From positions 1 through 34,973 of IMG/VR virus record IMGVR_UViG_3300020403_000039: a stretch of DNA of 34,973 nucleotides; one strand, given 5' to 3'. Position numbers and translations under genes: made by a program. Of the stretch, positions 601 to 32,900 are shown one piece after another (within the stretch, counting starts at the first letter, position 1; every line of letters starts with the position of its first letter). The notes below the pieces were generated by a model, which was not told where the DNA came from, made no database searches, and worked only from the letters and a program-made list of their open reading frames with translations. Source of the DNA: a virus. Taxonomy: Duplodnaviria > Caudoviricetes.

Positions 601-1099
601 CTTCGGTTTGGGTTACGTCGATTGGGGGTAGGGCGGTGGCGTCCGAACCAGTCATTTGGGTGGGTGGTTCGACGCGGACGCGGATTTCGGGCAGGGATTC
701 GGTGGCGGTTGGTTCGTCGCAGCCCACTTGACGTGCCAGGGAGTCGAGGATGCTGGCGGCGGTTTGTAGTTGGCCGCGTTTGATGGCGGCGTTGAGGACT
801 TTTTGGCGCATTGAGAAGATGCGGCTGGCGTATTTTTCACGTTCCAGCTCAAAGTCTTGGTTGTTGAGGTTTGCGACCTCACGCCAGTCGCGCCAGGCGG
901 TTTCTTCGCTGATTTGTTCTTTTTGGGCGTGGTCGAGGACTAGCTGTTTGGCGGGGAGTCCTTCGAGTTGGCGCATGTAGAGGCGCTTAATTCGCTGCTC
1001 TCGTTTGTAGTGAAAGCGCGTAATTTTTGGCGCGTGCTTGTTTTCCTTGGGTTCTTCGGAATGTCCCACAGGGACATCTTTGTTTTCCACGAGATTCAC
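584..1099 (-). CDS. terS: Probable terminase small subunit
   Basis: 171 aa directly upstream of and overlapping terL; HTH-like QISEETAWRDW segment followed by helical region. Confidence 0.7.
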   Translation of the reverse strand: MNLVENKDVPVGHSEEPKENKHAPKITRFHYKREQRIKRLYMRQLEGLPAKQLVLDHAQKEQISEETAWRDWREVANLNNQDFELEREKYASRIFSMRQKVLNAAIKRGQLQTAASILDSLARQVGCDEPTATESLPEIRVRVEPPTQMTGSDATALPPIDVTQTEDVEND

Positions 1100-1186
1100 A
1101 GAATCTTACGTCAAGAGTAACAACGTTCCAGCCAACTTAACTAGTGCTCGTATTTTTTGCCATAGCGGGTGTAGCACACCAAAAAC

Positions 1187-1215
1187 TTGACCCCTGCCCC
1201 CTAGTACAGTAGAGT
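1187..1215 (+). promoter_or_regulatory. Sigma70-type promoter (TTGACC-17-TAGAGT)
   Basis: Near-consensus -35/-10 with 17-nt spacer; no convincing ORF follows. Confidence 0.45.
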
Positions 1216-1460
1216 ATCTTTGTGATGTTCATGGAGGTTCCCTGTGTGTTGCCCAGTGCGCTGAGCAGCTGAACCCTACCCCCTGGCGTTGTTGCGAGCC
1301 GTTCGCAATAGGCCTGGCCCTTAACGCGGCGGGCCTATTGACAGCAGTTCGCAATAAAGAGCACAGCAGCCGGCCAACCGTTGCGCCGCAGTGGCCGCCG
1401 GCCCATGGGAGACGAGCGTGGCAGCCGGGCTGTCGGCAGAGAGGCAAAGCGCAGCGGATC

Positions 1461-1649
1461 TTACCGGCCGTAAACGGTGAGAACACACTGGTCTGCAGTA
1501 GCACCTGCGGTGATGCATCGGCGAAGTTTGCTCTCATCCTCAGCAGCAAAGACGAGAGCATATGTAGCGCAACAGAGCAAGAAAGCAGCAAGGGAGCCGC
1601 CAACGCGCCAAGCATCGAAAACGCTGGAATCGACAGAACGAAGGGACAT
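1461..1649 (-). CDS. Small hypothetical membrane protein (62 aa)
   Basis: ATG at 1649 downstream of a TACAAT -10; one hydrophobic segment (SLAAFLLCCATYALVFAA). Confidence 0.55.
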   Translation of the reverse strand: MSLRSVDSSVFDAWRVGGSLAAFLLCCATYALVFAAEDESKLRRCITAGATADQCVLTVYGR

Positions 1650-1698
1650 GATGTTGTGGGGGTTGTGCGGATGGGTGCCGCTTGCTGTCAATTGTAGC

Positions 1699-1735
1699 AA
1701 AAAAGAAGCCGAGACAGCGAGCGCCCCGGCTTTCT
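1699..1735 (-). terminator. Rho-independent terminator
   Basis: Minus strand GCCGGGGC...GTCTCGGC stem followed by TTCTTTTTT, just after the stop of 1742..2191. Confidence 0.65.
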
Positions 1736-1741
1736 TAAGGT

Positions 1742-2191
1742 TTACGGCCAAGACTTCGCCTTGGGATTGAAGCGGCTGTCCAAGTCATCCCGAAGCGTTA
1801 AACCTGACGCACCAGGTCGCCCGGTCTCACGCCAGCGCTTCCAAGTGAACAGCGCTAGCGCCTCAGCATCAGCGAAGCCTAGGGTCTCGACAGACTCCCA
1901 CCATTGCGCTTCACATTTCCAGCGGTCGAAAGCATTCAGCCCGCCATCACCAAAGGGAGCAACGGACCACGAATAAACCCGCAATACCACGTGGAAACCG
2001 TCATCCGTGGGATCCCGCAGAATCTCCATCTCACCAGCTAAGCCTATGTGATCGTGGACGGCCCACGGATGCAGGTATAGGCTGGTCGTCGCGCCCTCTG
2101 GGACGCCGCAACGGTTCACATAATGCAGCTGCAGAAAATCCGTTTTCTGTGCTTCAGTCGGAAACAGCGTCAGGGTTTCAGTGGTGCTCAT
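1742..2191 (-). CDS. Hypothetical early protein
   Basis: 149 aa ORF coupled (ATGA overlap) to the upstream gene and followed by a terminator. Confidence 0.7.
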   Translation of the reverse strand: MSTTETLTLFPTEAQKTDFLQLHYVNRCGVPEGATTSLYLHPWAVHDHIGLAGEMEILRDPTDDGFHVVLRVYSWSVAPFGDGGLNAFDRWKCEAQWWESVETLGFADAEALALFTWKRWRETGRPGASGLTLRDDLDSRFNPKAKSWP

Positions 2192-2673
2192 TGTGCGACC
2201 TCACCAACGAACCACACCAGCGCTTCCTTCTGTGCATCATCCAACCAAAGGAAGTCAGCAGCGGAAGCCCAACTAAACCAAAGCCGCAGACTGTCGGCGT
2301 CGACGTGACCATGGCGGCCAAAATCTCCGGTGATCCAGCAAGACGGACCACCAACAGTCAGCCACACTTTGAAACTGTCAGGCTGACCGTCGAAGTCGCT
2401 ACCAGCGGACCAGGTAGCTGAATAGTCCACACCTAGGCAAGCGCTGCGGCAAGCGTCCCAGGCAGCGTCGCGGATATGGTCGGCGGTCAGGTCGTCAGTG
2501 TCAAAGTTGAAGCCGGCGTCTTCGCAGATCTCGACGGCATCAGCAGACAAGGGGAAGAGCTTCTTGTCATCGTCCCAGAGCCTGGCGAAACGGTCCAGCT
2601 CATAGATGGCCTCAATGGTGGCAAGCTTTGCGCGTGCGTTCTCTTGGCCGGTGTTTTGTGTTGTGGTTGCCAT
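2188..2673 (-). CDS. Hypothetical acidic early protein
   Basis: Likely start ATG 2673 (MATTTQNTG...); Asp-rich; contains LTVGGPSCWI. Confidence 0.7.
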   Translation of the reverse strand: MATTTQNTGQENARAKLATIEAIYELDRFARLWDDDKKLFPLSADAVEICEDAGFNFDTDDLTADHIRDAAWDACRSACLGVDYSATWSAGSDFDGQPDSFKVWLTVGGPSCWITGDFGRHGHVDADSLRLWFSWASAADFLWLDDAQKEALVWFVGEVAQ

Positions 2674-2777
2674 AGGTAGCGGCGAACTCGACTCATACAG
2701 TAGAACACACAATTCGGCAGCCTGTCAACCGATCCACCTAAGAAAATCTGAGAATTCTCAAAATGTCTCAGGGGGTC

Positions 2778-2806
2778 TTGCGACAGGTCTCACCTATATG
2801 TAATGT
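2778..2806 (+). promoter_or_regulatory. Sigma70-type promoter (TTGCGA-17-TAATGT) within TCTCA repeats
   Basis: Direct read; lies 30 nt before ATG 2836, with a divergent TTGACA at 2728-2723. Confidence 0.5.
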
Positions 2807-2835
2807 GCTGCAGTACATGTCTCAACCTCTCACCC

Positions 2836-3120
2836 ATGGAGAAGACAGAAGCACTGGAGTTCATCCGCGCCAGGCTCGACGACGGTTGCATCCGTTCTGA
2901 GGTCATCGCTGAGCTAACGGAAGCTGGCGTTAGCCGTGCCACTGCCTATAGATGGTTCAACATGCTGGCCAAGCCAGAAGCCGAACCAACGCACTCAGAC
3001 CTTGTCTTGAATGCGCTCAAAGATCAGCTGTATCAGGCACAAGCGGTGGACGATCCAGAGCAGATTCTTAAAGTCGCCAATGCTTACGCCGCTGCCCTCG
3101 CAAAATTCAAACGCGTCTAG
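2836..3120 (+). CDS. HTH DNA-binding protein
   Basis: Likely start ATG 2836; GVSRATAYRWF matches the resolvase/Hin-type HTH recognition helix. Confidence 0.7.
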   Translation: MEKTEALEFIRARLDDGCIRSEVIAELTEAGVSRATAYRWFNMLAKPEAEPTHSDLVLNALKDQLYQAQAVDDPEQILKVANAYAAALAKFKRV

Positions 3121-3140
3121 AGGCTGAGACTCACGAGACC

Positions 3141-3169
3141 CAACACTAAACACACGAACCACTCAAAAC
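3141..3169 (+). repeat. 29-bp leader repeat, copy 1 (CAACACTAAACACACGAACCACTCAAAAC)
   Basis: Identical to 3586-3614; ends 1 nt before the ATG of 3171. Confidence 0.95.
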
Positions 3170-3170
3170 C

Positions 3171-3554
3171 ATGCACCTTGATCTCAAAGCCCAAGACTAT
3201 CCTCTCTTAATTGACGCAATCCACTGGGAGCTGGACCTGCTTGAGGAATTAGATGCAGACGCATCTCCTCGATACAAACGGTTAGTTGAAATCCAAGAGC
3301 ATATACAAGCTTTTGTTGATGACGTTCCAGGGAAGCAGAAAAGGGTTGGATCGTTTATACCCAGGCTGCGGCTCTCCAAACTGAAGCCGCCGTCCCGAGA
3401 GTTCCCCTACTACTTCTCAGAAAACGGCGTGACTGTTTGGCTAAACCAAAAGCAGTATTGGGATTTAAGGAAGGCTTTCTTAGGGCAGGCTAAAGAAGGC
3501 GATCCAGTTGCCTTAAAACGTCTTCAAGGTTTTGGGCCACTACCAAAAAAATAA
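3171..3554 (+). CDS. Hypothetical protein
   Basis: 127 aa ORF directly after leader repeat 1. Confidence 0.7.
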   Translation: MHLDLKAQDYPLLIDAIHWELDLLEELDADASPRYKRLVEIQEHIQAFVDDVPGKQKRVGSFIPRLRLSKLKPPSREFPYYFSENGVTVWLNQKQYWDLRKAFLGQAKEGDPVALKRLQGFGPLPKK

Positions 3555-3556
3555 AG

Positions 3557-3580
3557 TTAAGCGGCTAAGCCGTCAAAGTA
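3557..3580 (-). repeat. Orphan synonymous copy of exonuclease 3' end (YFDGLAA*)
   Basis: Minus strand TACTTTGACGGCTTAGCCGCTTAA versus the real gene end 3801-3824 TACTTTGACGGCTTGGCTGCCTGA; all 4 differences are silent. Confidence 0.85.
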
Positions 3581-3585
3581 GGACT

Positions 3586-3614
3586 CAACACTAAACACAC
3601 GAACCACTCAAAAC
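3586..3614 (+). repeat. 29-bp leader repeat, copy 2
   Basis: Identical to 3141-3169; ends 1 nt before the ATG of 3616. Confidence 0.95.
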
Positions 3615-3615
3615 A

Positions 3616-3825
3616 ATGAAAGCTAATCACCTTTCTGTTTCCTGTAGCAGGGAAATGGATTTCAGGATGATTCAGCACCTTGCTGAGTTAAGTGGTCAGT
3701 CAGTTTCAGCCATGGCCGGTAACTGCCTGTCTGAGTACCTGCAAGAAAACTATTTAAGGCTGGCGGAATTCTATGAGGAAGCACGTTCCAGGCTGGATGC
3801 TCAGGCAGCCAAGCCGTCAAAGTAA
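3616..3825 (+). CDS. Small ribbon-helix-helix-like DNA-binding protein
   Basis: 69 aa; beta strand LSVSC then helices IQHLAELSGQSVSAMAGNCLSEYL, a CopG/Arc-like pattern. Confidence 0.55.
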   Translation: MKANHLSVSCSREMDFRMIQHLAELSGQSVSAMAGNCLSEYLQENYLRLAEFYEEARSRLDAQAAKPSK

Positions 3826-4607
3826 ACCTCACAACGTTCCAGGAATCGAGATTCAGCGCCTCGCAGTTCAAGCTCGCTTAATTCGCGCAGCTGCGGGGCT
3901 CCGGTGCGACGTGCCACCACCACATACGCTCCAGCCGCTTTTATGCCGGTGAGACTCTTGAGACCCAAACTGTATGCGCCTAATTGGTCGATGTAGTTGG
4001 TGAGCATCTCTTCGCTTCTTTCGCGTTGACTGGTTTTCCAGTCGATAAGCATTGGCCCCTTGCCTTGAATGTCGAGTAAGGCGTCACACGTTCCAGCAAA
4101 ACCAGCTGAATGGTGAATGGAAAATTCGACGGCATGAATGGCGGTTACGTGTTTGCCGATCCAGCCGCGTAGGCCGCGTGCGTAGCCTGCTGCGCTCCAG
4201 GGGACTCTAGGAGCGCCTTGAATGGCTCTTTCGATACCCCATGAGGTGATGGAGCCGGGGCAACGTTCCAGGCCGTCTTTAGAGGTTTTCCAGACGTTGC
4301 GTTTGTTGGCGGCTTTGCGGGCTAATTGGGCTCCGGTTTTGAGGATGTATTCCGCGTGGTTGTGGGCAAGGGTGCCTCGTGTAGCAGCGGTTTCCCGATC
4401 TTGTTCGCTACCTGGACGAGCCAGCCAACGTTCCAGGGCTTGTTTTTGATGATCCGGTGCCGTAGCGCCCAGTATGTGGGTGACGCTATGAAACACGCCG
4501 CCAGCGTTGTCCCGATAAACGCGCCAGTTGAAATCGGTTCCGGAGTCATCACGCACCAGGGAACTTTTGCGTAACTTACTCAGCCTGGCTTGTGCTTCAT
4601 TAGCCAT
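3801..4607 (-). CDS. PD-(D/E)XK exonuclease (Cas4/lambda-exo-like)
   Basis: SVTHIL, RGTLAH, E...FAGTCDAL, IDWKTS and QLGAY motifs. Confidence 0.88.
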   Translation of the reverse strand: MANEAQARLSKLRKSSLVRDDSGTDFNWRVYRDNAGGVFHSVTHILGATAPDHQKQALERWLARPGSEQDRETAATRGTLAHNHAEYILKTGAQLARKAANKRNVWKTSKDGLERCPGSITSWGIERAIQGAPRVPWSAAGYARGLRGWIGKHVTAIHAVEFSIHHSAGFAGTCDALLDIQGKGPMLIDWKTSQRERSEEMLTNYIDQLGAYSLGLKSLTGIKAAGAYVVVARRTGAPQLRELSELELRGAESRFLERCEVYFDGLAA

Positions 4608-4744
4608 GTTTGCGTTAGCTGATTAACTTTTGGTGGGACTAGATGGTGTGAGCTTACCCAGCCAAATTCATCGCCAACATCTATACGAACCATCCCGTCA
4701 TCTGTATTAGTGATTACGGGTTCAGGGATTTTGTGTTCGGCCAT
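4580..4744 (-). CDS. Small hypothetical protein
   Basis: MAEHKIPEPVIT...GWVSSHHLV; fills the operon and overlaps both neighbours; start could be 4753. Confidence 0.6.
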   Translation of the reverse strand: MAEHKIPEPVITNTDDGMVRIDVGDEFGWVSSHHLVPPKVNQLTQTWLMKHKPG

Positions 4745-4895
4745 ACGTTCCATGGTTTTTATACAGCTCATATAAGCCGCAGAAGCGTCCGTGGAAAGGG
4801 TGTTCTGGCATATATCGGAGGTCTGCTTGGTAAAGACGTTCCAGGTAGTCCACTCGTGCCTGTTGTTCCTTTACGTCTTCCGCTCCGTAGGCCAT
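4722..4895 (-). CDS. Small cyanophage-type hypothetical protein (57 aa)
   Basis: Manual translation MAYGAEDVKEQQARVDYLERLYQADLRYMPEHPFHGRFCGLY...; resembles the 'LY...HP.HG..TGL' mini-proteins of cyanophages. Confidence 0.65.
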   Translation of the reverse strand: MAYGAEDVKEQQARVDYLERLYQADLRYMPEHPFHGRFCGLYELYKNHGTYGRTQNP

Positions 4896-4927
4896 GCAAA
4901 TACTATTTCCCAGTTGAATATACCTTG

Positions 4928-5491
4928 TTAAAGCCTTTTTGCCAACTGCCGCTCTGCGTTCTCAAGGAGTTGGCGAAGCCGGCGTTCCATTTCCTTTGGT
5001 GATTTTCTTGGGTTAGTACAAAACAAAATGCTGCCTTCACGTTCCAGGGAGGAGGCTTCTTTCAAAAGAGTTTTGAACTCACCTCTCTGCTCTAGTAAAA
5101 GCAGCTGCTCCCAACGCTGAATAGTCAGTACAGGAACAGGCTTTAAGCCGATGTCTTCCGTTCCATCCGCTCTGGTGTACCTCTTCAGGTACCCATTTGC
5201 ATATATCTGGTCGTAGAGGCAGTTGTCTCCTGTTTCATGCAGTTTTATGCCCCTCGCCTTTTCTTCTGTAGTTGGGAAAAGCCATAGATGATCGGTTTTG
5301 ACAGGCTTGCCGCGTTCAGGTTGTCCTTTCGCCTCCCACACAGAGGGTTGCTGGCCTGAGGTTTTGTAGACGTCCCAGGGATATATGCGTGGTTTGCTTA
5401 TGCAAGCCCGTTCTCGGCTTTTTATGACTGTGGTCACGTGACCGAAGACAACGACTGGTTTGTTGATGAGTGGTTTAAGTTCAGTTCTCAT
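4928..5491 (-). CDS. Hypothetical protein
   Basis: Likely start ATG 5491 (MRTELKPLINKPVVVFG), 187 aa; possible OB-like beta pattern. Confidence 0.65.
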   Translation of the reverse strand: MRTELKPLINKPVVVFGHVTTVIKSRERACISKPRIYPWDVYKTSGQQPSVWEAKGQPERGKPVKTDHLWLFPTTEEKARGIKLHETGDNCLYDQIYANGYLKRYTRADGTEDIGLKPVPVLTIQRWEQLLLLEQRGEFKTLLKEASSLEREGSILFCTNPRKSPKEMERRLRQLLENAERQLAKRL

Positions 5492-5492
5492 A

Positions 5493-5525
5493 AGGAAAAG
5501 CCGCCGGTGCTCGAATACCGACGGC
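5493..5525 (-). terminator. Terminator-like hairpin
   Basis: GCCGTCGGT/ACCGGCGGC stem followed by TTTTCCTT, downstream of the 39-aa peptide gene. Confidence 0.55.
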
Positions 5526-5559
5526 CCATGCACCCCAACCTTTTCTAGGTTAGTACAAA

Positions 5560-5679
5560 TTAACGGGTGTAGCAAACACCTCTGTAACAAAGATTGGCGG
5601 TCTTTGCGATTGCGTTTTGAGCAGTTTGAAGTGCTTGCTTCTTTTGCTGCTGCTTTTGAATGAGGCTGAGGACGTTCAT
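5560..5679 (-). CDS. DUF4278-like small protein (YRGV motif, 39 aa)
   Basis: MNVLSLIQKQQQKKQALQTAQNAIAKTANLCYRGVCYTR; the YRGVxY motif is typical of DUF4278/'downstream peptide' proteins of cyanobacteria and cyanophages. Confidence 0.75.
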   Translation of the reverse strand: MNVLSLIQKQQQKKQALQTAQNAIAKTANLCYRGVCYTR

Positions 5680-5686
5680 GGGTTTG

Positions 5687-5700
5687 GTAGCAACGGTTAC
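5687..5700. promoter_or_regulatory. NtcA-type box GTA-N8-TAC
   Basis: GTAGCAACGGTTAC (minus strand GTAACCGTTGCTAC), 7 nt before ATG 5679 and just downstream of a TATATA -10-like element. Confidence 0.6.
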
Positions 5701-5745
5701 TAAAAGGCTATATATCTTGCCACGGAGGTGGTGTTCGTCCCAGCA

Positions 5746-5775
5746 CAACAAAACCCCTAGCCGAAGCCAGGGGTT
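5746..5775 (-). terminator. Rho-independent terminator with C(UUCG)G loop
   Basis: AACCCCTGGC-TTCG-GCTAGGGGTT followed by TTGTTG. Confidence 0.8.
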
Positions 5776-5961
5776 CTGAAGCTTGCTAACAGGCGTGGTC
5801 TGTCAACAGATGCTGCACATAATGACCAGTCGAGCACGGCTAGTCAGTCCAACCGGTGATGAAGCGGATGGTATGTGATCATTAGTGGACCTCCAGGTTT
5901 CCCCTTTGGCGCTAATGGCAATGGCGTTACAAGGGCACGGAGTCCGCCGCAACGAAATTGC
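5746..5961 (-). ncRNA. Candidate structured small RNA (~215 nt)
   Basis: Extended -10 TGcTATTAT at 5976-5968, several hairpins, a terminator, and only a 12-codon ORF. Confidence 0.4.
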
Positions 5962-5978
5962 TCAAAAATAATAGCACA

Positions 5979-6566
5979 TCAGTCAGCCTTGAATGGGTGG
6001 CCGCCGGTGAGAAGGCGGCTGATGTCAAAGCCGTTGCTGACCGCTTCGTTCCAGGCAGCATCTACTGCGGCTTGGCTGTCCTTCTTGCGGGGGACAGGGC
6101 GCAGGCCGTACATGTCGGGAGAGACGGTGGCGGCCTTCGTCATGATGAAGTCCCACTCGGTCATGTCGCTGTACTCCTCGACTTGTGAAATCTCGTCGAG
6201 TTCCTTCTGCAGACCCTTCTGCGTCAGGCTCAGCACCTGCACACGTTTGATGTCGAAGTTGTAGATCGGCATTGCGATGGCAAACTTCTGCGGCTCTTCC
6301 GTTCCATCGTCTTTGAGGCGGCGGCGGTAGTTAGCGCCCATCTCCTGCTCGATCTCGTCGGCAGATGCTTCTGCGGCAAAGCGGAACGGCTTGCCTTTGC
6401 CAGTTTCGTCTTCGCCCCAGACCTCGAAGTAGCAGAGGGGTTCGTTCGCCAGAATTGCAAAACGCACTTGGCCGTCAGCTTTGACCTTGCTGGGGCTCAG
6501 GTAGTCGTTACGGCTGCCACCGCCGCCTTTGAAGGCGTCACTGTGTTCTTTGGGGATGAAGCTCAT
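5979..6566 (-). CDS. Putative single-stranded DNA-binding protein
   Basis: YLSPSK...VRFAIL...IYNFD..VQVL.LTQK...WDFIMTK pattern of gp32-like phage SSBs; located between exonuclease and primase. Confidence 0.6.
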   Translation of the reverse strand: MSFIPKEHSDAFKGGGGSRNDYLSPSKVKADGQVRFAILANEPLCYFEVWGEDETGKGKPFRFAAEASADEIEQEMGANYRRRLKDDGTEEPQKFAIAMPIYNFDIKRVQVLSLTQKGLQKELDEISQVEEYSDMTEWDFIMTKAATVSPDMYGLRPVPRKKDSQAAVDAAWNEAVSNGFDISRLLTGGHPFKAD

Positions 6567-6603
6567 GGTTTAGATGCTGCGGGCTATGCCCAGTGCCTAT
6601 CAA

Positions 6604-6692
6604 TCCTAGTACTTTTGCGGGGTTTGACAACCTTCGTAGAATAAAAAAACCCCCAGTGCCCGTCCCGGCAGCTGGGGATTTGGATAGTCCCG
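6604..6692. promoter_or_regulatory. Divergent promoter region with two hairpins before the primase
   Basis: Minus TTGTCA-16-TAGGAT; plus TAGAAT; hairpins CCCCAG..CTGGGG and AGTCCC..GGGACT. Confidence 0.45.
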
Positions 6693-6730
6693 CTTGGGAC
6701 TCGTTTTGTAGTTCTTTGAGACTGTAACAG

Positions 6731-9145
6731 ATGTCGAAGCTTCCTGCCTTCGTTCGTTCACTTCCTGCTGCCTGGGCTACATGCCCCATCTATGGCAAAG
6801 GCGTCAAGCTTCCCTCCGGTAAAGAGGCTTGCGGTAAATCTCCTCTCGGTAAGACGCACCACGAAGATTGGTCTCCTGCTGAGACTGCGCTGCACATTGA
6901 GCGCAACCCTGACCAGTTCAAAGCTGTTGGTGTCTTCACCGGACCACGCAGCAATGGCTTGGTCATTCTTGACATTGACGCCAACCTGGCTCAGCTGAAA
7001 AAGAAGTGGGGCAAAGACCTTGCTGCTGCACCGGTTATTGAGTCAACCAAGATAAATGCAGCCAAGTACCTCTTTTACGTTCCACGGGAGTACTGGGGTG
7101 AGGTTGATGGTCTGAGCCTTAGCGCCAGCAATGAAGGCTGGGAGGTGCTGTGGGGCCGTCAGGGGCTTGTAGGCGGCGCTTACAAGGATCAGGGTGTCTA
7201 TACGCAGGAAGGCGACTTCGAGGCGATTCCAGAGGCTCCTGAGTGGCTTCTGGCATATATGAAGGAGTCTTTTCGTGGCAAGCAAAAGACTGGCGAAGGC
7301 AAAAAGGATCCGCGTTATGGGATGCGCTCCACCGAGGAGCTTTGCCTGATCGTTAAAAACTGCCTGACGGTTGTGCAGCCGCAGGGACGTGGCAGTGAAG
7401 ACCAGTGGTGGCGCATTGGCGCAATGATTCACTCTGAGTTGCCTGGTGATGAGGGGCTCGACTTGTGGCGTGAGTGGTCGCAGCGTGACGATGAGTACGC
7501 CGACGACTGGCAAAACAACGATCCATGCGCTGATCGCTGGGAGTCCGGTTTTAAGTCAGGTGGTGGCTTGGGTTTGGGCAGCTTGATCACGCTGGCTGAT
7601 CACTACGACCCAGATAGAAACCGCTTCGTGAATGACCCTGCTGCAAAGCAGGTGATTGAAGAAATCAACCAGATGGCGGTTTCGTTCCGTCAGGCTGTTC
7701 TTCCGTTTGAGCAGGTCATTGAGAAGGCCAAGAAATATCTGGAGCTGGATAACCCTGCTGAGATGAATTACAACCTCAATAACTTGGCGCTCCAGGCCGG
7801 TTATCGAGACCAGATCTCGCTGGAGAAACTGATTGTTGATCAGATTCAGTTTGAGGGTGCAAAGGGATTAATGGGGGCGCAGGATTTGATGGATAGCGAT
7901 CAGGAACGCAACTACCTGATTCCTGATGTGTTGCCGCACCCCTCTGTGGTGCTGATCTATGGCGCTGGCGGTGATGGCAAGTCCATGTCGGCTTGGACTA
8001 TTGCGAAACACATTGCGACTGGTGCTCCCTTCATCGTCAGGGGTAAGCCCGTTCCAGTTGAAAAAGGTCCGGTGCTGCTGCTGAATGGTGATCAGCCGCT
8101 GGTGCAGCTCAAAGAGCAGCTTCAGGAGGTTGATTACCCGGCAGACAGCGAGACATTCATTCAGACCGATTGGCAGCTTCAGCGGTATGCGCAGTTCGTG
8201 AAGCTGATGCACGACATCAAGCCGAAGCTGGTGGTCATTGACTCGCTGATCGGCTGTAGCGGTGGTCGTGCCTTTGACGAAAACAAGAGCGACTTCGCCA
8301 CGCCGCTGTACTGGCTGACTCGCAACAACGGCGTGCTGTTCCCGGCCACCACGATCCTCATCGTTCACCACGCCAACAAGCAGGGCGGCTTCAGGGGCAC
8401 CTCAGCCATTCGTGACGCTGTAGATGAAACGTGGTCGCTGAAAAAGCCTGACAACGCTATTGGCAGCCTTCCGGCCCATTGCAGGCTCATCACTATTGAA
8501 AAAAGCCGCTCTGGGCGCTCAGGCACTCAACTGGTTATGCGGATGGAAGATGACCTGAGCTTCTCCATCAGTGATTACACGCCTGAGGTTGACTCGGGCA
8601 ACAACGCTCCAAGCAGCATCACCGACCGGGTGCTTCAGCGGTTGCGTGTAATCCATCCTCGAACCGCTACTCGTAGCGATCTCAACGCTGACCCTGTTAT
8701 TGGCGGCAACGTCGCCGCTATTCGCAAATCGCTCCAACGCTTAGAGAAGCGGAATTTGATTGAGGTGGTTGGTTCCGTTCCAACCGGTGATGGGAAGAAC
8801 ACTTCTGATGTCTATAAAGCAGTTCTCGCGTGCGGGGCCCTGCGAGAGAGTGTCCCACCTTCGGAAAACCCTGTTGCTGGAACGGATTTAGGATGGGACA
8901 CCTCGGTTAAAAACGAGGAAGTGTCCCACCTTGCTGGAGCGCAGGACGCCCCTGGAGCGGACGAACCAGATCAAGATGGGACACCTTCTCAAAAAACAGG
9001 TGAGTGTCCCACCTTAAAATCCAGTGCTGAAGCGGGAAGTGCCAAGATGGGACAGCCTGAGCAATATCCCCGCGCGAGGGAGGACGAACGGACCAAGGAT
9101 GAGTTGAATGGGTCTCGTGATCAGGCTTGGAACATGTGGGGTTGA
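6731..9145 (+). CDS. Primase-polymerase / PriCT-2 / RecA-like (AAA_25) helicase fusion
   Basis: LVILDID (prim-pol DxD); WWRIGAMIHSEL..GLDLWREWSQ (PriCT-2); GAGGDGKS Walker A; LVVIDS Walker B; IVHHANK. Confidence 0.88.
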   Translation: MSKLPAFVRSLPAAWATCPIYGKGVKLPSGKEACGKSPLGKTHHEDWSPAETALHIERNPDQFKAVGVFTGPRSNGLVILDIDANLAQLKKKWGKDLAAAPVIESTKINAAKYLFYVPREYWGEVDGLSLSASNEGWEVLWGRQGLVGGAYKDQGVYTQEGDFEAIPEAPEWLLAYMKESFRGKQKTGEGKKDPRYGMRSTEELCLIVKNCLTVVQPQGRGSEDQWWRIGAMIHSELPGDEGLDLWREWSQRDDEYADDWQNNDPCADRWESGFKSGGGLGLGSLITLADHYDPDRNRFVNDPAAKQVIEEINQMAVSFRQAVLPFEQVIEKAKKYLELDNPAEMNYNLNNLALQAGYRDQISLEKLIVDQIQFEGAKGLMGAQDLMDSDQERNYLIPDVLPHPSVVLIYGAGGDGKSMSAWTIAKHIATGAPFIVRGKPVPVEKGPVLLLNGDQPLVQLKEQLQEVDYPADSETFIQTDWQLQRYAQFVKLMHDIKPKLVVIDSLIGCSGGRAFDENKSDFATPLYWLTRNNGVLFPATTILIVHHANKQGGFRGTSAIRDAVDETWSLKKPDNAIGSLPAHCRLITIEKSRSGRSGTQLVMRMEDDLSFSISDYTPEVDSGNNAPSSITDRVLQRLRVIHPRTATRSDLNADPVIGGNVAAIRKSLQRLEKRNLIEVVGSVPTGDGKNTSDVYKAVLACGALRESVPPSENPVAGTDLGWDTSVKNEEVSHLAGAQDAPGADEPDQDGTPSQKTGECPTLKSSAEAGSAKMGQPEQYPRAREDERTKDELNGSRDQAWNMWG
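8825..9078. repeat. Iteron-like array (candidate replication origin) inside the primase-helicase gene
   Basis: AGTGTCCCACCTT at 8849, 8920 and 9003 alternates with inverted GATGGGACA(CCT) at 8892, 8975 and 9046; outer imperfect inverted repeat at 8825-8837 and 9068-9078. Confidence 0.75.
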
Positions 9146-9194: not shown

Positions 9195-9207
9195 ACCTCA
9201 TTAAAAA

Positions 9208-13977: not shown

Positions 13978-13978
13978 C

Positions 13979-25046: not shown

Positions 25047-25062
25047 GATGCGTCACTTTACG

Positions 25063-25482: not shown

Positions 25483-28400
25483 CAGCCTGTTTCCTCTCTG
25501 AAATCATCTATACCCCAATCTAAAACTGCTAACGAACCTGAGCTTGTGCGTGGTACGTAGCTTCCGGCTACTTCGATAAGACCGTCTTCGCCGTAAGTAA
25601 TGCTTTCGGCTTTATACGTGCGGCGCACTGGATTTGATTGCGGGTCTCGTGTAAACACAGAGCCGTGAGCAAAACTCTCCCGTACCACTCCATCCGTAAC
25701 GTTGATTGTGTCTGTGTATAAAGCATCCGTTCCAGGCTTCCAGTAAACGATGTCTAGGCTGCCGTTCTCAATGTCGACGCCGTTGATGTAGCCGTTTTTG
25801 TCGATGGAGCCGTTTCTCAGGCGTTCACCCGAATCCGTTCCAGTCGTTGGGTGAGAAACGGTGGTGACGAGATCGAAGTAGTCACCTGGTTCGAGGGTTA
25901 ATGCGGACTGTGGTGTGGTCTCAAATTTCACGCCGTGATCCACAAGGGTTCTAGTTTTCAAGGCGTACTTGGCAAACTTCGCTGCGTGCTCTTGGCTTGT
26001 GCAGAACTGAGACATGTCAAAAGTCTCTTCAGGGTCATCTTCACTGCCGCCTGCGTGTCTTTCGAGCCGTACCACCAGAACACGTTTATCGGGAAAACCG
26101 TCAAGCTCGTCTCTTCGCCAGATGCACACCGCTTTAAACGGTTGGCGCTCTTCCGGTGACAGGAAGCTTGTTTGCAGACCTCTGATGTTTCCGTCGGTGA
26201 ACAGAGTTTTGATTTCGCCGCCTATGTCTTTTGTGTAGTCAATTTCGCCGCTGTTCTTGAATGGAACGTCAGGATAAAGGCTGAACTTGCCGCCTTTAAC
26301 GATAAAGCTCAACATGCAGAAGGCTGACTGTTCAAAAATCCATTGACGGATGTTCAAGCGCTCTGCAATAACGCCATCCCAGTAGAAGTTGTTTGCGGTG
26401 CAGAACTTGGCGGCTTTAGCCATGCTCTCTCTATCTATTTGATTACTGGGGTCGCCTGAGCTACTTGTTAAAAACGCACCAGCGCCGTATTTCGTGTTTG
26501 TAAGTAAGTCGTATGCGATGTCGGGGACTGTTGAGATCGTGCCAAAAGTTCTGTCGGCTTTAGTGCCGACAATCCCCTCGCGGAAAAATGCAGAAACTTG
26601 GCTAAAGGTTGACCACTCTTTGCCACTTGCAAGACGAAGCCCTGCGTAGGCTAAGTCTTCATATTGAGGCTCATTCACATCGTCAACAATTTCGTTTAAA
26701 TTAACGATTTCGTGTTCGGGTTGTTGTTGCGCTGATGTGTCTTCTGCGTCGTAAACCACATAGTCCTGGATAGCGTCATTTACACGCAGGTTGTTTTGAG
26801 AAACGTCTTTATTGACAAAAATTTGAACGCTTACAGGATTGGTTTGCGAGCTAGTGAATGTAAGGTTGATAGTTTCACCGTCTCGATAACCCGTACCAGG
26901 ATTTTTAATTGACCAGTGCGATGCGCCGTCAGGCCACTGGAATGTAAACAGCTCTAGACCGGTTCCGCTGCCTCCAGTAATGTTGCCTCCGGCTACGCTA
27001 ATTACCTCTTCAATGCTTGGCTTCTCTTGGAGAGTACGTCTTTCTCTAATAATTGATTTGAGGTTTGGTGACCCACCTACGGTCTGAGTGCCAATGGTGT
27101 ACTTGTAGTCACCATTAAAGACTACGTTGTTGTCTGACGAACCTACAGGATCGTTTGCGTCTCCCCAGTAAAAGTTGTTATCTGTGCCAAAAACAGATGA
27201 TACGTAGTATTCAGCGGCTACATCAAGCCGCTCTTCTGGCTCAACGTAGGTAATGTCTAAATTCGGTAAAAGGCCGTCGTTACCTACGCCCTCCGTAGCG
27301 CTAAAACTGAGTACGCCGCCTGTTTCAACAATGTTTGGTGGAAGCCCAAGAACCCACTCAAGGTTGCTGGATATAACTTGGTTTAATGTTATTGGGCGGC
27401 CAATTATTTGAACTTTTATTTGGCTACCGTCAGGTAAACTGCTGCCGTGAATTGTTGTTTTTTGCTCGCTATTTGAAACGGCATCCAGCAAGTAAGCTTC
27501 AATTCCTTCATTACGAAAGTAAAGTTCTAAAGCTGCGCCGGAAACTGGGTAGAGGCGAAACTCGAATTCGCCATCAGGATGGTTGACGCTAATTGTGTTG
27601 TATTGCGGCTCTGGCGTACGTCCCAAAACACAGAGCCACGCGGGGTATTGCCCATTGGTATTTAGGATTTGGGTAAAATCTTTAGTCGTACCAGCGCGCC
27701 TGACCCCTAGGGAGAATACACTTATGCGCTTGTTGAAAAGCTGCATAGAGCCCAGCGAGAACTGGGTTCCGTCTTCTTGGAAGTCTTGAATTACGTCGTC
27801 GTCTACTCGGCTGTTGACATTCGCAAAACCGTTGATCCGTCGAAAAACGGTTGATTTAAGAAGAATGTCGGTGCGGTGGCATCGCCTGTTATTAGTGACC
27901 GTGCCGATTGCTGCGCGTTGGACTGTAGTTCTCGCACCAGGTTCGTCTGTGCCCTCGATAGGTCCACACATAACATTGCCGCCGGGTTCGACGACTCGGA
28001 AGTATGCCCGTACAGGGTTTGGAGATTCGGGGTACCACGGTGAATTGTCTTTTTGGTAGCAAACGCAAAGTGCATCGCCGATCATGTAACTATCACCGAC
28101 CGCTAAAGCTGCATCGGCGTCATAACGTGTTCGGTCTTGCGCTTGAATAATATCTTGCGCTCCGTTGGATTCAAAAGTGTCGCCGGTGTATTTATTCGTT
28201 CCAATCACATACGTGATGATGTCTCCTTTTTGCACAACCCTTGGGTTTGGGTCAACATCGTAGCTTACGCCAGCTACGGTTTCGACGTGGCAGTAGCGGG
28301 GAAATTCCGCTGCAATTTTTCTGGCTTTTGCTCTGACTTCGTCTTTTGAGTCGCTGCTTGCATCGTCGTAAACAAGAGTTACTTGGTACGGAACTTTGTA

Positions 28401-29249
28401 CCGCATACCGTTAGGCAGCGGTGAATAAAGGCCGAATTGCGCTTGTGTTGCAGGTGTTCGTGCGCCGCTAAATGAAGGAACAGATTCGCCACTGAAATCA
28501 ATAACCTCAAAAGGTTGCTGCGACCCCGGCAGGACCGGCATCAAGCTTTCGCTATACCTGTTTTGAGTTTTGTTTATCCTGCCGCCGTCTTGTCGGTAAA
28601 ACAGTTCAATTTTTCCTTTGTTGTAGTTATTAAGCAGGGATTCGCCGATTGCGTAACTTGCAAACGTTGGTGCCTTACCTGGTTCTTCGCCTATTTTTCC
28701 ATGGCCGAAAAGCAGCAGAGCACGCAGTTCTTGGTATCGGCCTTTGCTGAGCATGTGACTCCACAGCAAAGTGGAATTGACACGCGCTCCACCGCCGACG
28801 TACTGGCCCTGGTTAAACCTTGAGTTGCAGTAAATCAGCGGGATAATGTCGCCTAAATTTGCAAGGTTCTGCAGTGAGTCAAAACCTGCGGTCGGTAGAT
28901 ACTTATCTCTGCCGTTGAGGTCAGGTGTCCTGATAGAGCCCGGTGCTTTGGACTGCCCAGGTACTGAAGGCCTAAGTAAGAGACTCAGCGCCGTGGACGC
29001 CAAGCCAATAACTAGAGAAATAATTGCAACAGTTAGACCACCATCCCCTGCTCTTATATCTGGAATAAGTTCGTATTCTTTGCCGCGTTCCTTTGACTCA
29101 TGAAGTAGGTCAACAAATGTCCAGTAATCATCTGCTGTGATGCCTAGCGCTTCACAAAGCTGGACTTCTGACGGGAGTAGTACACTTCGACGACCTCCAG
29201 GAGTCCGATGGGACTCCATTTCACCGCCGACTCGACGTAGCTCAGCCAT
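25482..29249 (-). CDS. Tail tip / host-specificity protein (lambda J-like)
   Basis: About 1250 aa after NlpC/P60; DIIPLIY, DLLTN..YGAG and LEPGD motifs. Start may be ATG 29219. Confidence 0.8.
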   Translation of the reverse strand: MAELRRVGGEMESHRTPGGRRSVLLPSEVQLCEALGITADDYWTFVDLLHESKERGKEYELIPDIRAGDGGLTVAIISLVIGLASTALSLLLRPSVPGQSKAPGSIRTPDLNGRDKYLPTAGFDSLQNLANLGDIIPLIYCNSRFNQGQYVGGGARVNSTLLWSHMLSKGRYQELRALLLFGHGKIGEEPGKAPTFASYAIGESLLNNYNKGKIELFYRQDGGRINKTQNRYSESLMPVLPGSQQPFEVIDFSGESVPSFSGARTPATQAQFGLYSPLPNGMRYKVPYQVTLVYDDASSDSKDEVRAKARKIAAEFPRYCHVETVAGVSYDVDPNPRVVQKGDIITYVIGTNKYTGDTFESNGAQDIIQAQDRTRYDADAALAVGDSYMIGDALCVCYQKDNSPWYPESPNPVRAYFRVVEPGGNVMCGPIEGTDEPGARTTVQRAAIGTVTNNRRCHRTDILLKSTVFRRINGFANVNSRVDDDVIQDFQEDGTQFSLGSMQLFNKRISVFSLGVRRAGTTKDFTQILNTNGQYPAWLCVLGRTPEPQYNTISVNHPDGEFEFRLYPVSGAALELYFRNEGIEAYLLDAVSNSEQKTTIHGSSLPDGSQIKVQIIGRPITLNQVISSNLEWVLGLPPNIVETGGVLSFSATEGVGNDGLLPNLDITYVEPEERLDVAAEYYVSSVFGTDNNFYWGDANDPVGSSDNNVVFNGDYKYTIGTQTVGGSPNLKSIIRERRTLQEKPSIEEVISVAGGNITGGSGTGLELFTFQWPDGASHWSIKNPGTGYRDGETINLTFTSSQTNPVSVQIFVNKDVSQNNLRVNDAIQDYVVYDAEDTSAQQQPEHEIVNLNEIVDDVNEPQYEDLAYAGLRLASGKEWSTFSQVSAFFREGIVGTKADRTFGTISTVPDIAYDLLTNTKYGAGAFLTSSSGDPSNQIDRESMAKAAKFCTANNFYWDGVIAERLNIRQWIFEQSAFCMLSFIVKGGKFSLYPDVPFKNSGEIDYTKDIGGEIKTLFTDGNIRGLQTSFLSPEERQPFKAVCIWRRDELDGFPDKRVLVVRLERHAGGSEDDPEETFDMSQFCTSQEHAAKFAKYALKTRTLVDHGVKFETTPQSALTLEPGDYFDLVTTVSHPTTGTDSGERLRNGSIDKNGYINGVDIENGSLDIVYWKPGTDALYTDTINVTDGVVRESFAHGSVFTRDPQSNPVRRTYKAESITYGEDGLIEVAGSYVPRTSSGSLAVLDWGIDDFREETG

Positions 29250-29542
29250 CCGCCTTCAAAGTAAACCGCCATGGCATAGCTCCCATCAGCAGCCTTGCAT
29301 AGCGCAACTGAACCGATTGTAGGCGTGTCTATAACATCACCCCATTTGTGTAGCTCTTCCTTGAATACTGCAGTATCACCTCGTCGCAACCTTCGGTACC
29401 AGTCACGTTCTCTTTTTGGGGTTTCGTAGCCGTACCAGTTCAAAACCTGCATTGCCAAACCGATGCAGTCGGTTGCACCGTGTTTGTCCCAGGTGGCGCC
29501 TAAGCGGTACTTGCCACCAATAAGTTCATAAGGAGTCTTCAC
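29144..29542 (-). CDS. NlpC/P60-like tail assembly protein (lambda K-like)
   Basis: YRLGA....GATDCIGL motif and position. Confidence 0.75.
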   Translation of the reverse strand: MKTPYELIGGKYRLGATWDKHGATDCIGLAMQVLNWYGYETPKRERDWYRRLRRGDTAVFKEELHKWGDVIDTPTIGSVALCKAADGSYAMAVYFEGGWLSYVESAVKWSPIGLLEVVEVYYSRQKSSFVKR

Positions 29543-29979
29543 CTACTGCTGATTGCTGCAGAAATAGGAAGCTCCCCAACCATGGCCTGAGTCAGTACAC
29601 GCCTAGGTGTTGTCACACCAACGGCGTCGATTGCGCTGGAAAGTACGACTTCGATTGTCTCTGCGTCGTAAGACATCCCAGTAACGATCCAGGTTTCTTG
29701 GGTGAGTCTTCTGGTGATTGATGTGAAATCAGAGTTCATTACGCATGTTTCGACTGTGACTGCGGCTTTGTCGGCAACCGCCTGTCGTACAGCGTTCATA
29801 CTGATCTGGTTCGCCGATAGGACGATGGCGGCTTCGAGGTTGTCGCCGTTTCGGTTTTTTGCTGCGCCTTGGTAGTAGAACGACAAGTACCCGTGGCCGT
29901 TAATCGAACCACCGATTTTGCCGTTCTGGTATTTGTCGCCTTCGACGTCGATGAATGTCGTTATTGCGGTGAGTGTCAT
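29539..29979 (-). CDS. Minor tail protein (lambda L position)
   Basis: Coupled to the tape measure gene; LSSAIDAVG..PRRVLT..VGELP. Confidence 0.65.
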   Translation of the reverse strand: MTLTAITTFIDVEGDKYQNGKIGGSINGHGYLSFYYQGAAKNRNGDNLEAAIVLSANQISMNAVRQAVADKAAVTVETCVMNSDFTSITRRLTQETWIVTGMSYDAETIEVVLSSAIDAVGVTTPRRVLTQAMVGELPISAAISSR

Positions 29980-32900
29980 CGCATTCCGATCCGGCTACGT
30001 TGCGACCTGCTGTTTTGCAGTGATTTCATCGTATTCGACTGACCCATCTGCGCACCACGCTTTGCAGATATAGCGCCCATTTCTCGGACTTGGTCGACTG
30101 TTGCGTACTCAACGCCGTTGATGACCGTGGTTTCCAGGCGGAATGTTGGGGTTGAGTCTGCGGTGTTCCCGCTGTTGTAGCGACTCATAAGATCACGGGA
30201 TTCAGAGTTACTAAGAATCATTCCAGGGCGATCGGGCATAAATAGCTCAGGCCCGCGCTCACCGACGATGCTTACCCTACCCATCGGTGGGCGGCCACCA
30301 TCAGCGAAGAAACTCATCCCCATGGTGCTGGGAACTGACGCCTTTGGAATACTCCAGCCGCCTGGTGCTCCACCACCTCCAAGCAGCTCACCACCACCCA
30401 TGCCGGCAAAGGCGCGGGCGATGCCGATGGCGATGTACTGCGCAATCATGGTTGCTGCTTGATCAATGAGCGCTTTGCCCATAGCTTTAAGCATGTCAGC
30501 AAATGCCTCTTCCGCTGACTTAGTTCCTTCAATAAGTCCCACCAAACCTTCAGTTAGGCCGTTGACGAAAGCGTTTACGGGACCTTGAACTAGTTCCAAT
30601 GTTTGATTGAATTTAAGCTGAGCTTGTTCGGCTGCAGCAATTTGCGGCAACATTCTTTCGTAGACACCGCGCTGACGTTCCAGGAGTTTTATTTTGGCTG
30701 CGGCTTCTATTTGGGCATCCTCACTGCCGTCTTTTTCAAGGGCTTTTTGAATTTCTAGTTGATCATTTATTTTTTGTATAGCGTTTGCATAGCGGTTTGC
30801 TTGTTTGGCTTCTAGTTGGTTTTGCTCGTCTAAGAAACGATCGCCAGTTGGTAAAGACAGGCCGGCTAGTTCTTGTCCCAAGCTGCGCTCTAAGTTGTCG
30901 ATTTGCTGCCGTCCTTTAATGCCTGTAATTTCTTTTTCAAGTTCTAAGCGTTCTTCGTCCAGTTCTTTTAGTTGATACAAAATGCTAAATTCTTTGTCAA
31001 GGTTTTTAAGTTTGAGTTCTTTAATTCGTTGGTCTTCCGTACCAAGCTCGATTTCTTTACGCTTAAGCTGTAGTAGGTCATCTAAGCGGTCCTTTTCAAT
31101 GCCTAGTTTCTCAATTTTATTGGCCCCAATAGTAATAAGTTTGGTGTTTAGTTCGAACTCTTTTGCTTTCAAACCTGCGATTGTTTTTTGGACTTTTGCT
31201 TCTTCATCAACACCCGCTTTTGGTGGTTTGTAGTTAGCTGCACGGTTACGAATAGCAGCAAGTTCTTTTTCATAAGTAAGTCTTGCATCCTCTAGTTCTT
31301 CGCGCAGAACACCAATCTTAATTTCGTCAATAGCGTACTGGTTGTATAACTGTTGTTCTTTGTTGATTCTGCGCTGGAAGGCTAGTTTTTTCTCTAAAGC
31401 AATGCGAGTCTCGTCATTAGCTTTAGCGTTGAGAAGTTCGATTTCAAGTTCAATGCGCTTTTCGGAAACTGTGCCTCGAATCTGACGAAGCTTAATACCG
31501 TCAAATTCCGCAAGAGTAGCGCGGACCTTTTCTTCGCGCGCAGCTTCAGCGTTAAGTTTGATTTGTGCAGCAATAATTTCTTGGATAATCTTTTCTCGTT
31601 CCTTGACTTTTGCTAAAGGGTCAGTTCCTGTTCCGAAGCCGACGCCTGCTTGCTCAAAACGTTCAAAACGAGCTTGTTGTTCCGCATCACCAGAGTTACG
31701 AGCTTGGTTAATAAGATTGGCACGTCCCAGTTGGTCGGCTATGGCTTTGAATAGCCCAACGCTGTTGATGACCTGGGCGACTGATGAAGCCATTAAGGTC
31801 ATTGCCTTGGCAAATTCGTTGCCTAGGCGTGTGCTGTCTTCGCCGAATTCTTTGAGAGCGTCGACGCCCTCTTGACCAATAAGGTCAGCCATTCTTTGGG
31901 TGGCTATTGAGAGGGCTAAAGCCTCGCGACCCGAATTCTCAAGACGCTCCACAAGAGAAGCAAAAGGAGTATTTGTTGCTCCAAGGGCTTCTACGAGCTT
32001 AGTAGTGTCGGCGGTGGCGGGATTAAGGGCTGCACCAAGTTCGCCGATACTTCGGATGTAGTCGTCGACTGCTTGTCCGATTGCGCCGCCGACAATCTGA
32101 CCCCCAAAGCCGCTACCTACAAACGATCCAGCGGCTGAACCAAGGACTGAACCCGCTCCGCCGCCAAAAAGTAACGGAAAACCAACGCCAAGAGCAATAC
32201 TTTCTGCCCGTTTCTGCCTTTCTCTATCTGCTGCTTTTTGTTGATCAGCGAGTTTTTTAATTCTTTTTTGCTCAAGTCTGTATATAGCTGCATTCTGCTT
32301 GACTTTTAAAGAGTTGATACTCTTAGTAAAGTTTTGATCAAGGTTCCCAGCGAGTTTAGTAAGTCGTACTCTTTCTTTGTACGCAGCTACGCCTTTTTCA
32401 TTTCCTGGACCAAAAACAGGTGATTTTAACTTTTGAGTGGATGCTACGGCTTCTTGAAGGCTGGCATTTACAATATCGAAGATTTTTGGAAGTTTATTTG
32501 CTTCGTTGGCTCCGTTTTTCAGGCCATTGACAAAATTAGCGACTTCTTGATTGGTGTAATCAAGGTCTTTCCCTAGTTGGTCACTAACTGACCGAATGCG
32601 CTTAATACCGCGAGTTGCAGCATCAAGCATTTCGCTGCTTGGAAGAGCCAGCGGCTGTTGATCAATGGCTACCTTGGGACGTCGTGCCAGCTCCCTGGCT
32701 ACTTTTTGTTGGTTGCGTCGAATGGACTTAGCAACAGGATCCCTAGCAGCAAAACCTGTGCCTGCACGAGAAGCACGGCTTTCTTCGACGTTTTGGCGGA
32801 TTCGCTGTTGCTGGGCAGTTAGCTCGTCGTAAATCCGCTTCCGTGCGCGGAGTTCATTGTTTACATTCTTTTCTGCTTCAATTAGACGTACTGTCTCTTG

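Follow-up and report, generated by a model that had tools for sequence, protein, structure and literature searches.

We analysed a stretch of 34,973 nucleotides (hereafter the window) from a tailed virus of the Caudoviricetes (IMG/VR record IMGVR_UViG_3300020403_000039) and found that a short gapped word, CG-NN-CCA(G), is written through its genes mainly on one strand. The word is a real, selected and clade-wide signal that is tied to a likely replication origin. It is probably the site at which the primase-polymerase (prim-pol)-helicase of the phage itself, encoded at 6731..9145 on the + strand, primes DNA synthesis; its copies would be lagging-strand sites, mainly for leftward replication. 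The window corresponds, at 99.9% identity, to part of G001, a record of 42,758 bases that carries end repeats and serves below as the complete genome.

The first-pass annotation had reported an octamer, CGTTCCAG, with 25 copies on the + strand and two reverse copies at 8877 and 23371. All of these were exact, and the two reverse copies are the only ones on the - strand. The 12 copies reported as ACGTTCCAGG and the listed variants were exact as well, and a further variant lies at 13564. Order-1 and order-2 Markov models predict only 0.7-1.1 copies of the octamer, against the 25 and 2 observed on the two strands. As the unit, the octamer had to be replaced by the gapped word, of which CGTTCCAG is the commonest spelling. 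CGNNCCA occurs 161 times on the + strand of the window (listed copies span 356..34088; 25 are CGTTCCAG) and 55 times on the - strand, with about 40 expected, and it was the top-scoring family among gapped words. Single changes of the core bases C, G, C, C and A are nearly absent, and changes in the two gap bases are common. Flanks and gap show soft preferences as well: A in front of the word, T or A at the gap positions and G behind the word. Around the whole circle of G001 (42.8 kb), 189 forward and 67 reverse words were counted and the forward excess holds all round; the median gap between forward words is 167 nt, and in the window they are densest at 2.5-5 kb. The enrichment in the genome is 3-5 fold.

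A codon-preserving shuffle had been proposed as a check, and when it was run the octamer proved enriched over the shuffled null in + and - genes alike. In 300 synonymous-codon shuffles, + genes had 6 copies versus 0.5 and - genes 16 versus 2.5, in all three frames in each case. For CGNNCCA the counts were 48 versus 11.4 in + genes and 94 versus 39.6 in - genes (z ~12 in both, all frames). Comparatively, the reverse-strand word was only mildly raised (z 3.4 and 2.0). A protein or codon artefact was ruled out by these shuffles as the source of the word. Among nine genome pairs, fourfold-degenerate core bases were kept in 467/669 cases (0.70), compared with 168/310 (0.54) for gap bases and a background of 0.58. 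The spacing was also more even than expected: across 15 genomes with median gaps of 150-350 nt, only 291 gaps were shorter than 60 nt, versus 464+-17 expected. As silent core bases are conserved and gaps are evened, the word is under selection as DNA and evenly distributed. Individual sites turn over, with 41 to 83 percent of them retained between genome pairs.

The gene at 6731..9145 (+) encodes an 804-aa replicase that combines a prim-pol domain, a PriCT-2 domain, a RecA-fold, superfamily 4 (SF4)-like helicase, a winged helix and a low-confidence tail whose coding DNA holds a set of iterons. The predicted fold of the catalytic prim-pol domain (aa 1-186, 6731..7288, +) matches the pRN1 prim-pol 3m1m with Z 12.2 and a root-mean-square deviation (rmsd) of 3.4 over 163 aligned residues, and 1ro2 with Z 11.4; PF09250 is present in some homologs. 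Its acidic residues D81, D83 and E138 are invariant in 119/119 related loci, and E138 would correspond to motif III of the archaeo-eukaryotic primases (AEP). The helical accessory domain PriCT-2 (aa 209-289, 7355..7597, +; Pfam PF08707, E 1.4e-11) is a candidate reader of the word. PriCT-2 is related to helix-bundle domains according to the available part of PMC5862659, and such domains read the template in related prim-pols, as the accessible portions of PMC8718748 and PMC10250227 describe. The RecA-fold helicase (AAA_25; aa 380-619, 7868..8587, +) has T7 gp4, RSF1010 RepA, DnaB, KaiC and RadA as its closest folds. The winged helix (aa 625-700, 8603..8830, +), which aligned to winged-helix regulators with Z 10.0-10.9 and rmsd 2.8-3.4 over 67-74 residues, is from this model a candidate iteron binder. 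A sequence search of solved structures reached only E 0.03 and 0.26, and single-sequence structure prediction of aa 1-310 was uninformative, with a predicted local distance difference test score (pLDDT) of 35. The helicase/winged-helix half has been swapped repeatedly within this one gene (L419-L491); L436 and L470, for example, are 98% identical in the primase half and 49% in the helicase.

Relatives of this replicase were collected by four viral-contig scans and one genome scan, to which loci L385-L416 were added. With a minimum of 8 kb per locus and of 700 aa per replicase, the set comprised 160 loci, and 119 were left after removal of near-copies. The strand bias claimed for the window extends to all of them: CGNNCCAG was commoner on the replicase sense strand in 119/119 de-duplicated loci, and at least twice as frequent as its gap-shifted control in 116/119. 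These loci span GC contents of 35-63%. By spelling they fall into two groups, A and B. The first C is relaxed in group B (G[CT]NCCAG), for which four residues in or beside PriCT-2 are diagnostic, including R298W (82/82 ungapped rows versus 31/31); R298 lies just behind PriCT-2.

A profile search of all representatives revealed a sister family, C, with a Prim-Pol domain, the same helicase and winged helix, and a CHC2 zinc finger in place of PriCT-2 (found in 12/15 members). Among its 43 loci (L342-L384), 30 were enriched for CGNNCTCG and none for CGNNCCA. The sister-family word is CG-NN-CTCG, as single-stranded template 5'-CCGAGAACG-3'. Within the frame CG-NN-C-xy-G, CA alone is enriched in the PriCT-2 families A and B (5.0x and 2.7x), and TC alone in the zinc-finger family C (3.1x). 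The zinc-finger pattern CP.H...C was present in 19/19 word-bearing C replicases versus 0/7 full-length replicases of a wordless clade, N. Clade N (L342-L350, L361) also has a degenerate zinc finger and variable iteron cores (TGTCC, TGCGACA, TCAGACA, AACGCTT), and it is suited to pairing winged-helix residues with iteron spelling.

Beyond these families, the distant prim-pol phages VP2, Tb, Bm1, pYD21-A, MW202675 and 1.210.O were without the word. Vibrio phage VP2 (W01, NC_005879; L322-L323), which carries a distant prim-pol, has GGCGGCGG 24 times on one strand and 0 times on the other; from its sequence this may be a Chi-like or other polarised signal. Two single-protein scans gave no match to middle-distance replicases. 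The genome-collection scan returned six loci, apparently phage contigs in bins of unrelated taxa, and no prophage with host flanks. A paired-word scan of DNA only, used solely as a negative control and covering 3/64 parts of the collection, gave 120 loci, 80 of them long enough and none with a match to the replicase of the window; 2/80 exceeded a -log10 p of 5, both with clustered pattern matches that are probably repeats. In the high-GC relatives L122, L124, L130, L135 and L310, GCTNAGC/GCTTAG is strongly over-represented on both strands and is possibly a methylation- or restriction-related site.

Six alternating inverted iterons lie at 8851..9054, TGTCCCA at 8851, 8922 and 9005 and TGGGACA at 8894, 8977 and 9048. 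The array is within the last 300 bases of the prim-pol gene, behind the winged helix. The repeats are conserved as DNA within the gene, and the protein tail encoded there is of low confidence (pLDDT <50). A TGTCC...GGACA pair was found in 77/79 A, 29/31 B and 14/19 C loci, the last being the de-duplicated set of that family. The GC content of the array is 0.53-0.56, with no AT-rich stretch inside, and falls to 0.46-0.49 just downstream. The array is likely a replication origin inside the replicase gene. Conserved CGCG-rich boxes flank it on both sides (8827-8830 and 9071-9076 in the window) in A, B and C loci, and are perhaps part of the origin.

The polarity of the word switches at this array. 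The reverse word TGGAACG (8878..8884, -) lies between iterons 1 and 2, and in 60/77 A arrays a reverse word stands within the first iteron pair, in most cases 26-27 nt from TGTCC. Two forward words, CGCTCCA at 8730 and CGTTCCA at 8776 (8730..8782, +), stand directly left of the array; in the 200-nt bin that contains them, the pooled forward density was 10.1/kb versus 0.5 in the control (84 loci), and since the copy at 8730 overlaps a conserved peptide, it is partly coding. There are no reverse copies in the window from 3348 to 8877. They resume at 8878, with three inside the array (further copies at 8935 and 8953), and 49 of the 55 in the window fall in a zone at 8878..34394 (-). Pooled over 86 loci, reverse words were near or below control left of the array, 4.9-8.9 per kb within it and 2-4 per kb right of it; in group C they reached 7.6 per kb in the array, where the iterons are again TGTCC/GGACA. 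Reverse density was higher right than left of the array in 53/57 usable A loci (of 79), 17/18 B loci (of 29) and 14/15 C loci (of 19).

The first-pass annotation had held that polarity follows the genome rather than transcription. That part stood, as the word occurs in genes of both orientations and in all frames; a uniform polarity did not, and a zoned one takes its place. In A, within + genes only, the observed/expected ratio (O/E) of reverse words rose from 0.80 in the gene body to 2.36 in the array and was still 1.62 downstream. Because a + strand gene contains the reverse switch, transcription does not account for it; these values and the codon shuffles ruled out transcription polarity as the cause of the pattern. 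We also examined the zoning at genome scale in 20 long records, 13 of them with a terL anchor. A reverse excess of 0.25-0.94 per kb starts at the array and extends across the structural genes. Between terS and the array there is none, or a deficit, and it is there that the forward excess is highest, at 2.5-5.6 per kb. In the window, the likely terminase small subunit gene (584..1099, -; assigned by position before terL, with no family match) is roughly where the reverse-copy zone ends on the circle.

As established for T7 gp4 and DnaB, a 5'-3' ring helicase that brings its own primase sees the lagging template strand. The word would there be met on single-stranded DNA as 5'-(C)TGG-NN-CG-3', that is 5'-CTGGNNCG-3' / 5'-CTGGAACGT-3'. 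Read in this way, it is found along the lagging template of leftward forks all round the genome, and along that of rightward forks only between the array and about terS. In the mechanism that we propose, the winged helix would bind the iterons and load the helicase there, and the helicase would run 5'-3' on the lagging template and carry the primase past the words. On the leftward fork, leading-strand synthesis would be primed at the reverse copy at 8878, and on the rightward fork at the forward copies at 8730 and 8776. Leftward forks would cover the whole genome, in one-way or rolling-circle replication, which would account for forward words everywhere; rightward forks would be less frequent and extend only as far as about terS from the origin, which would confine the enrichment of reverse words to that stretch. 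The zoning suggests that replication may be two-way first and leftward, one-way or rolling-circle, later. The soft preferences around the word (G, then G or C, with few T) sit on the predicted primer-start side. NrS-1 likewise primes just upstream of its site, according to the available part of PMC8718748. A word of 5-6 specified bases occurs by chance only every 1-4 kb, so extra copies would be worth selecting for. The two variable letters xy in CG-NN-C-xy-G would be set by the accessory domain, PriCT-2 or zinc finger.

The proposal that these are priming sites of the prim-pol at 6731, made in the first pass, is thus backed by the switch at the array, the fixed reverse site within it and the change of spelling with the primase accessory domain; its unit, its uniform polarity and its precedent in NrS-1 were corrected. 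More tentatively, since we rate it at somewhat less than an even chance, the word may be a modular priming code in a widespread aquatic phage lineage. The prim-pol core would read the constant letters and an exchangeable domain the letters xy; the code would be written into genes every ~200 bases, origin, fork direction and replication mode could be read from sequence, and specificity could be reprogrammed by a domain swap.

Several other proteins were considered as readers. The terminase was rejected, because the word is kept in G012, which has a lambda-like terminase (phrog_15/phrog_57), and in G011, which has another TerL. Pol A and the sigma factor were rejected, because the word is kept in records without a match (G007, G014, G016, G017, G019), although of the five that have no Pol A match, four are less than 100% complete. 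Probably neither the helicase or winged helix nor the host reads the word. Two neighbours of the replicase gene were harder to separate from it, a PD-(D/E)XK exonuclease (3801..4607, -) and a likely binding protein for single-stranded DNA (SSB; 5979..6566, -), whose homolog in G012 matches the SSB family phrog_1607. Covariation of the word with prim-pol, exonuclease or terminase had been put forward in the first pass as a check. It decoupled the terminase from the word, but the primase half, exonuclease and SSB were inseparable by trees. Under one labelling, the shift from A to B spelling needs 3 changes on the tree of the primase half, 5 each on those of the exonuclease and SSB, and 6 on that of the helicase.

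A number of results weigh against priming by the replicase. With clear labels only, the same shift needs 3 changes for the primase half, 2 each for the exonuclease and SSB, and 4 for the helicase. Nearest-neighbour prediction of the spelling was 0.86 for PriCT-2 versus 0.88 for the exonuclease and 0.89 for SSB, and distances correlated with spelling more strongly for the helicase (0.44) and exonuclease (0.43) than for PriCT-2 (0.31). Exonuclease and SSB occur in every A/B locus with enough flank and form the same clades as the replicase. The reverse word left of the origin in A is below chance (O/E 0.53), which priming alone fails to explain. A fixed reverse word within the array was found in just 5/29 B and 7/14 C arrays. 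The reverse excess of G012 (56 kb) already fades near 30 kb, ahead of terS at 44 kb. Clade N shows no clear genome-wide word despite the same replicase scaffold. The loci are kin, so that p-values overstate their independence, and group C loci were selected by their word enrichment. Finally, K112 stands in 119/119 loci where AEP motif II usually has His; as AEP families with Lys, Arg or Gln at this position are reported (in the accessible text of PMC5862659), K112 does not take the prim-pol out of the AEP superfamily.

As the exonuclease and SSB are always co-inherited, a Chi-like reading stays alongside the priming reading. The word would be a signal for the exonuclease/SSB recombination module that halts or switches resection of broken forks or genome ends, and would hence be polarised. 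Both proteins co-vary with spelling as well as the primase half does, word density peaks around the exonuclease gene, and such a signal predicts the same flip at the origin, which also tells against priming. On the - strand the word resembles Chi: the top octamer of group B, GCTCCAGC, is GCTGGAGC (Chi spellings in the available parts of PMC8022716 and PMC12315714). However, this reading gives no reason for a fixed reverse copy between iterons, and the C word CCGAGNNCG is unlike Chi. The Chi sites known so far are recognised by helicase-nucleases of the RecBCD type, and a lone exonuclease is not known to read them. Four loci with B-type exonuclease and SSB but another PriCT-2 had an intermediate spelling that leans to A (O/E of CGNNCCA[ACT] 2.13 versus 1.57), although they represent only about two lineages. 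We consider this reading unlikely.

Somewhat less likely again is that the same replicase reads the word as a directional loading, restart or pause signal, not as a primer start, in the way that FtsK-orienting polar sequences (KOPS) work, here for the helicase. It would explain the depletion of reverse words left of the origin and the even spacing, and a single replicase protein carries all the domains. However, spelling does not track the helicase or winged helix: helicases that share anywhere from 40-74% identity with that of the window go with the same B word, the helicase trees need the most changes, and the iterons stay TGTCC/GGACA while the word changes.

The odds are much poorer for a signal read by the host, in which the phage mimics a cyanobacterial Chi or a similar chromosome motif. 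Lambdoid phages may carry at least 20 host Chi sites in one orientation (available part of PMC12315714), and the word resembles CTGG-type Chi words. However, four high-GC psbD-psbC host loci (75 kb, a small sample of presumed hosts) gave an O/E of 1.03, 18 low-GC psbD-psbC loci (253 kb), many of them probably from plastids, gave 0.89, and 57 psbD loci that lack psbC (535 kb, phage for the most part) gave 0.95. The cyanophages S-CBS3, S-CBS4, S-2L, MED4-184 and KBS-S-2A showed no polarised enrichment (KBS-S-2A and MED4-184 up to 1.5-1.75x on one strand), and the spelling tracks the phage module.

A packaging signal or a nick site of the T5/tf type, both alternatives of the first pass, is quite improbable. 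The one-strand bias over the whole circle and the end of the reverse zone near terS would suit them, but the same word occurs with different terminases in G012 and G011, and B phages whose TerL is 76-80% identical to that of the window have the shifted spelling. Reverse copies enriched right of the array (O/E 1.6-2.4) speak against a nick site, and tf has 14 strict sites on one strand (accessible part of PMC3517423) compared with ~190 degenerate copies here. A functionless by-product of mutation bias or drive, which the turnover of sites would allow, is scarcely credible, since silent core bases are kept more often than the background, gaps are evened and a second spelling shows the same pattern.

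If the priming reading is right, the system works most like priming in NrS-1 or pRN1 joined to a lambda- or P4-like origin. The 8-nt site of NrS-1 is 5'-TTTGGTTA-3' (PMC8718748, PMC7102993 and PMC10250227, each in its available part). It had been taken in the first pass as a precedent for enrichment in the genome. That precedent fails, because NrS-1 holds only two copies (PMC7102993, in part), which are proposed as its origin in the accessible portions of PMC7102993 and PMC10250227; the genome-wide grid is the new part. As far as the accessible descriptions of NrS-1 go, the likeness lies in an AEP prim-pol that has a helical domain as its accessory and a ring domain at the C terminus, a long template word containing TGG, and an inverted site pair near the end of the polymerase gene, here the forward copies at 8730 and 8776 and the reverse copy at 8878. 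The differences are the two copies there against 189 forward and 67 reverse in G001, the gap in the word, the RecA-fold helicase followed by a winged helix, and the iterons in the gene. In pRN1 ORF904 the site 5'-GTG-3' is read by the helix-bundle domain (PMC10250227, in part); the fold of aa 1-186, the union of primase and helicase in one chain and the setting of specificity by an accessory domain are shared, as far as that source describes them. The 3-nt site of pRN1 needs no enrichment, whereas 5-6 bases are specified here and the genome is enriched.

T7 gp4 and DnaG are TOPRIM-type primases whose 3-5 nt sites are recognised by a zinc domain; as is proposed here, they work on the lagging template together with a 5'-3' ring helicase, to which they are either fused or bound. 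The zinc domain has a counterpart in the sister family, where a CHC2 finger is joined to an AEP core. In contrast, the core here is AEP with two interchangeable reader domains. The lambda ori lies inside gene O and serves two-way and then one-way replication, and P4 alpha is primase, helicase and winged-helix origin binder in one protein. The system studied here resembles them in its iterons inside a replication gene, in the union of primase, helicase and winged helix in one protein and, as proposed, in two-way followed by one-way replication, and differs in alternating inverted iterons, an array without an AT-rich stretch and a linked genome-wide word. In E. coli and the Chi-rich lambdoid phages LLS and MD8, Chi occurs once per 1.9-4.6 kb and is host-read and host-enriched (available parts of PMC12315714 and PMC8022716). 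It shares with the word a polarised short form scattered through genes, a CTGG core on one strand and the flip at the origin, but the word occurs once per ~0.2 kb, is unenriched in the sampled host-like DNA and is spelled by phage clade. As far as the accessible parts of PMC12315714 and PMC3517423 go, Chi-rich lambdoid phages and nicked phages fit less well than NrS-1 and pRN1. A literature search, with most subscription papers and supplements outside its reach, found no report of the word or of a genome-wide AEP priming grid, and no specificity reported for any PriCT-2 domain.

The phage is siphovirus-like and occurs in marine metagenomes. A cyanobacterial host is likely, judging from sequence matches: the best named sigma-factor matches include S-CBS3 and S-CBS1 (37-39%), and the capsid matches S-2L and Prochlorococcus phages. 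The sigma-factor search gave no named host. The replication module is joined to different head modules in G012 (L161-L163), G011 and G015; G012 has a lambda-like terminase, a portal and a fused protease-capsid protein, and also a fragment of an NAD-dependent ligase. A second polarised word, TGAATGG, has nine + strand copies at 4107..9273 (4107, 4114, 4135, 4219, 5990, 8082, 9105, 9252 and 9267). In pooled loci it reaches 1.2-1.75 per kb on the + strand at 2-5 kb left of the array, and ~0.1 per kb or less in reverse or to the right. It lies in several frames and in intergenic DNA, and is spelled TGAAAGG in L121, L123 and L125. It may be the site of a second protein, confined to the early/recombination region. 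Two near-identical 30-nt AC-rich leaders (3140-3170 and 3585-3615), each with a forward word, directly precede two small + genes (3171 and 3616), and may act as a common promoter or translation element.

The way in which AEP primases recognise a long template word is described as open, for NrS-1, in the accessible part of PMC7102993. Here, the genomes predict a priming site for two primase families on one scaffold, down to a candidate residue, R298. If the prediction is true, origins and fork directions could be mapped by the word in hundreds of uncultured phages of the sea and of fresh water, and the phage would shape its own coding sequence to feed its own primase. If instead the exonuclease is the reader, the word would be a phage-encoded Chi system, which would be at least as surprising.

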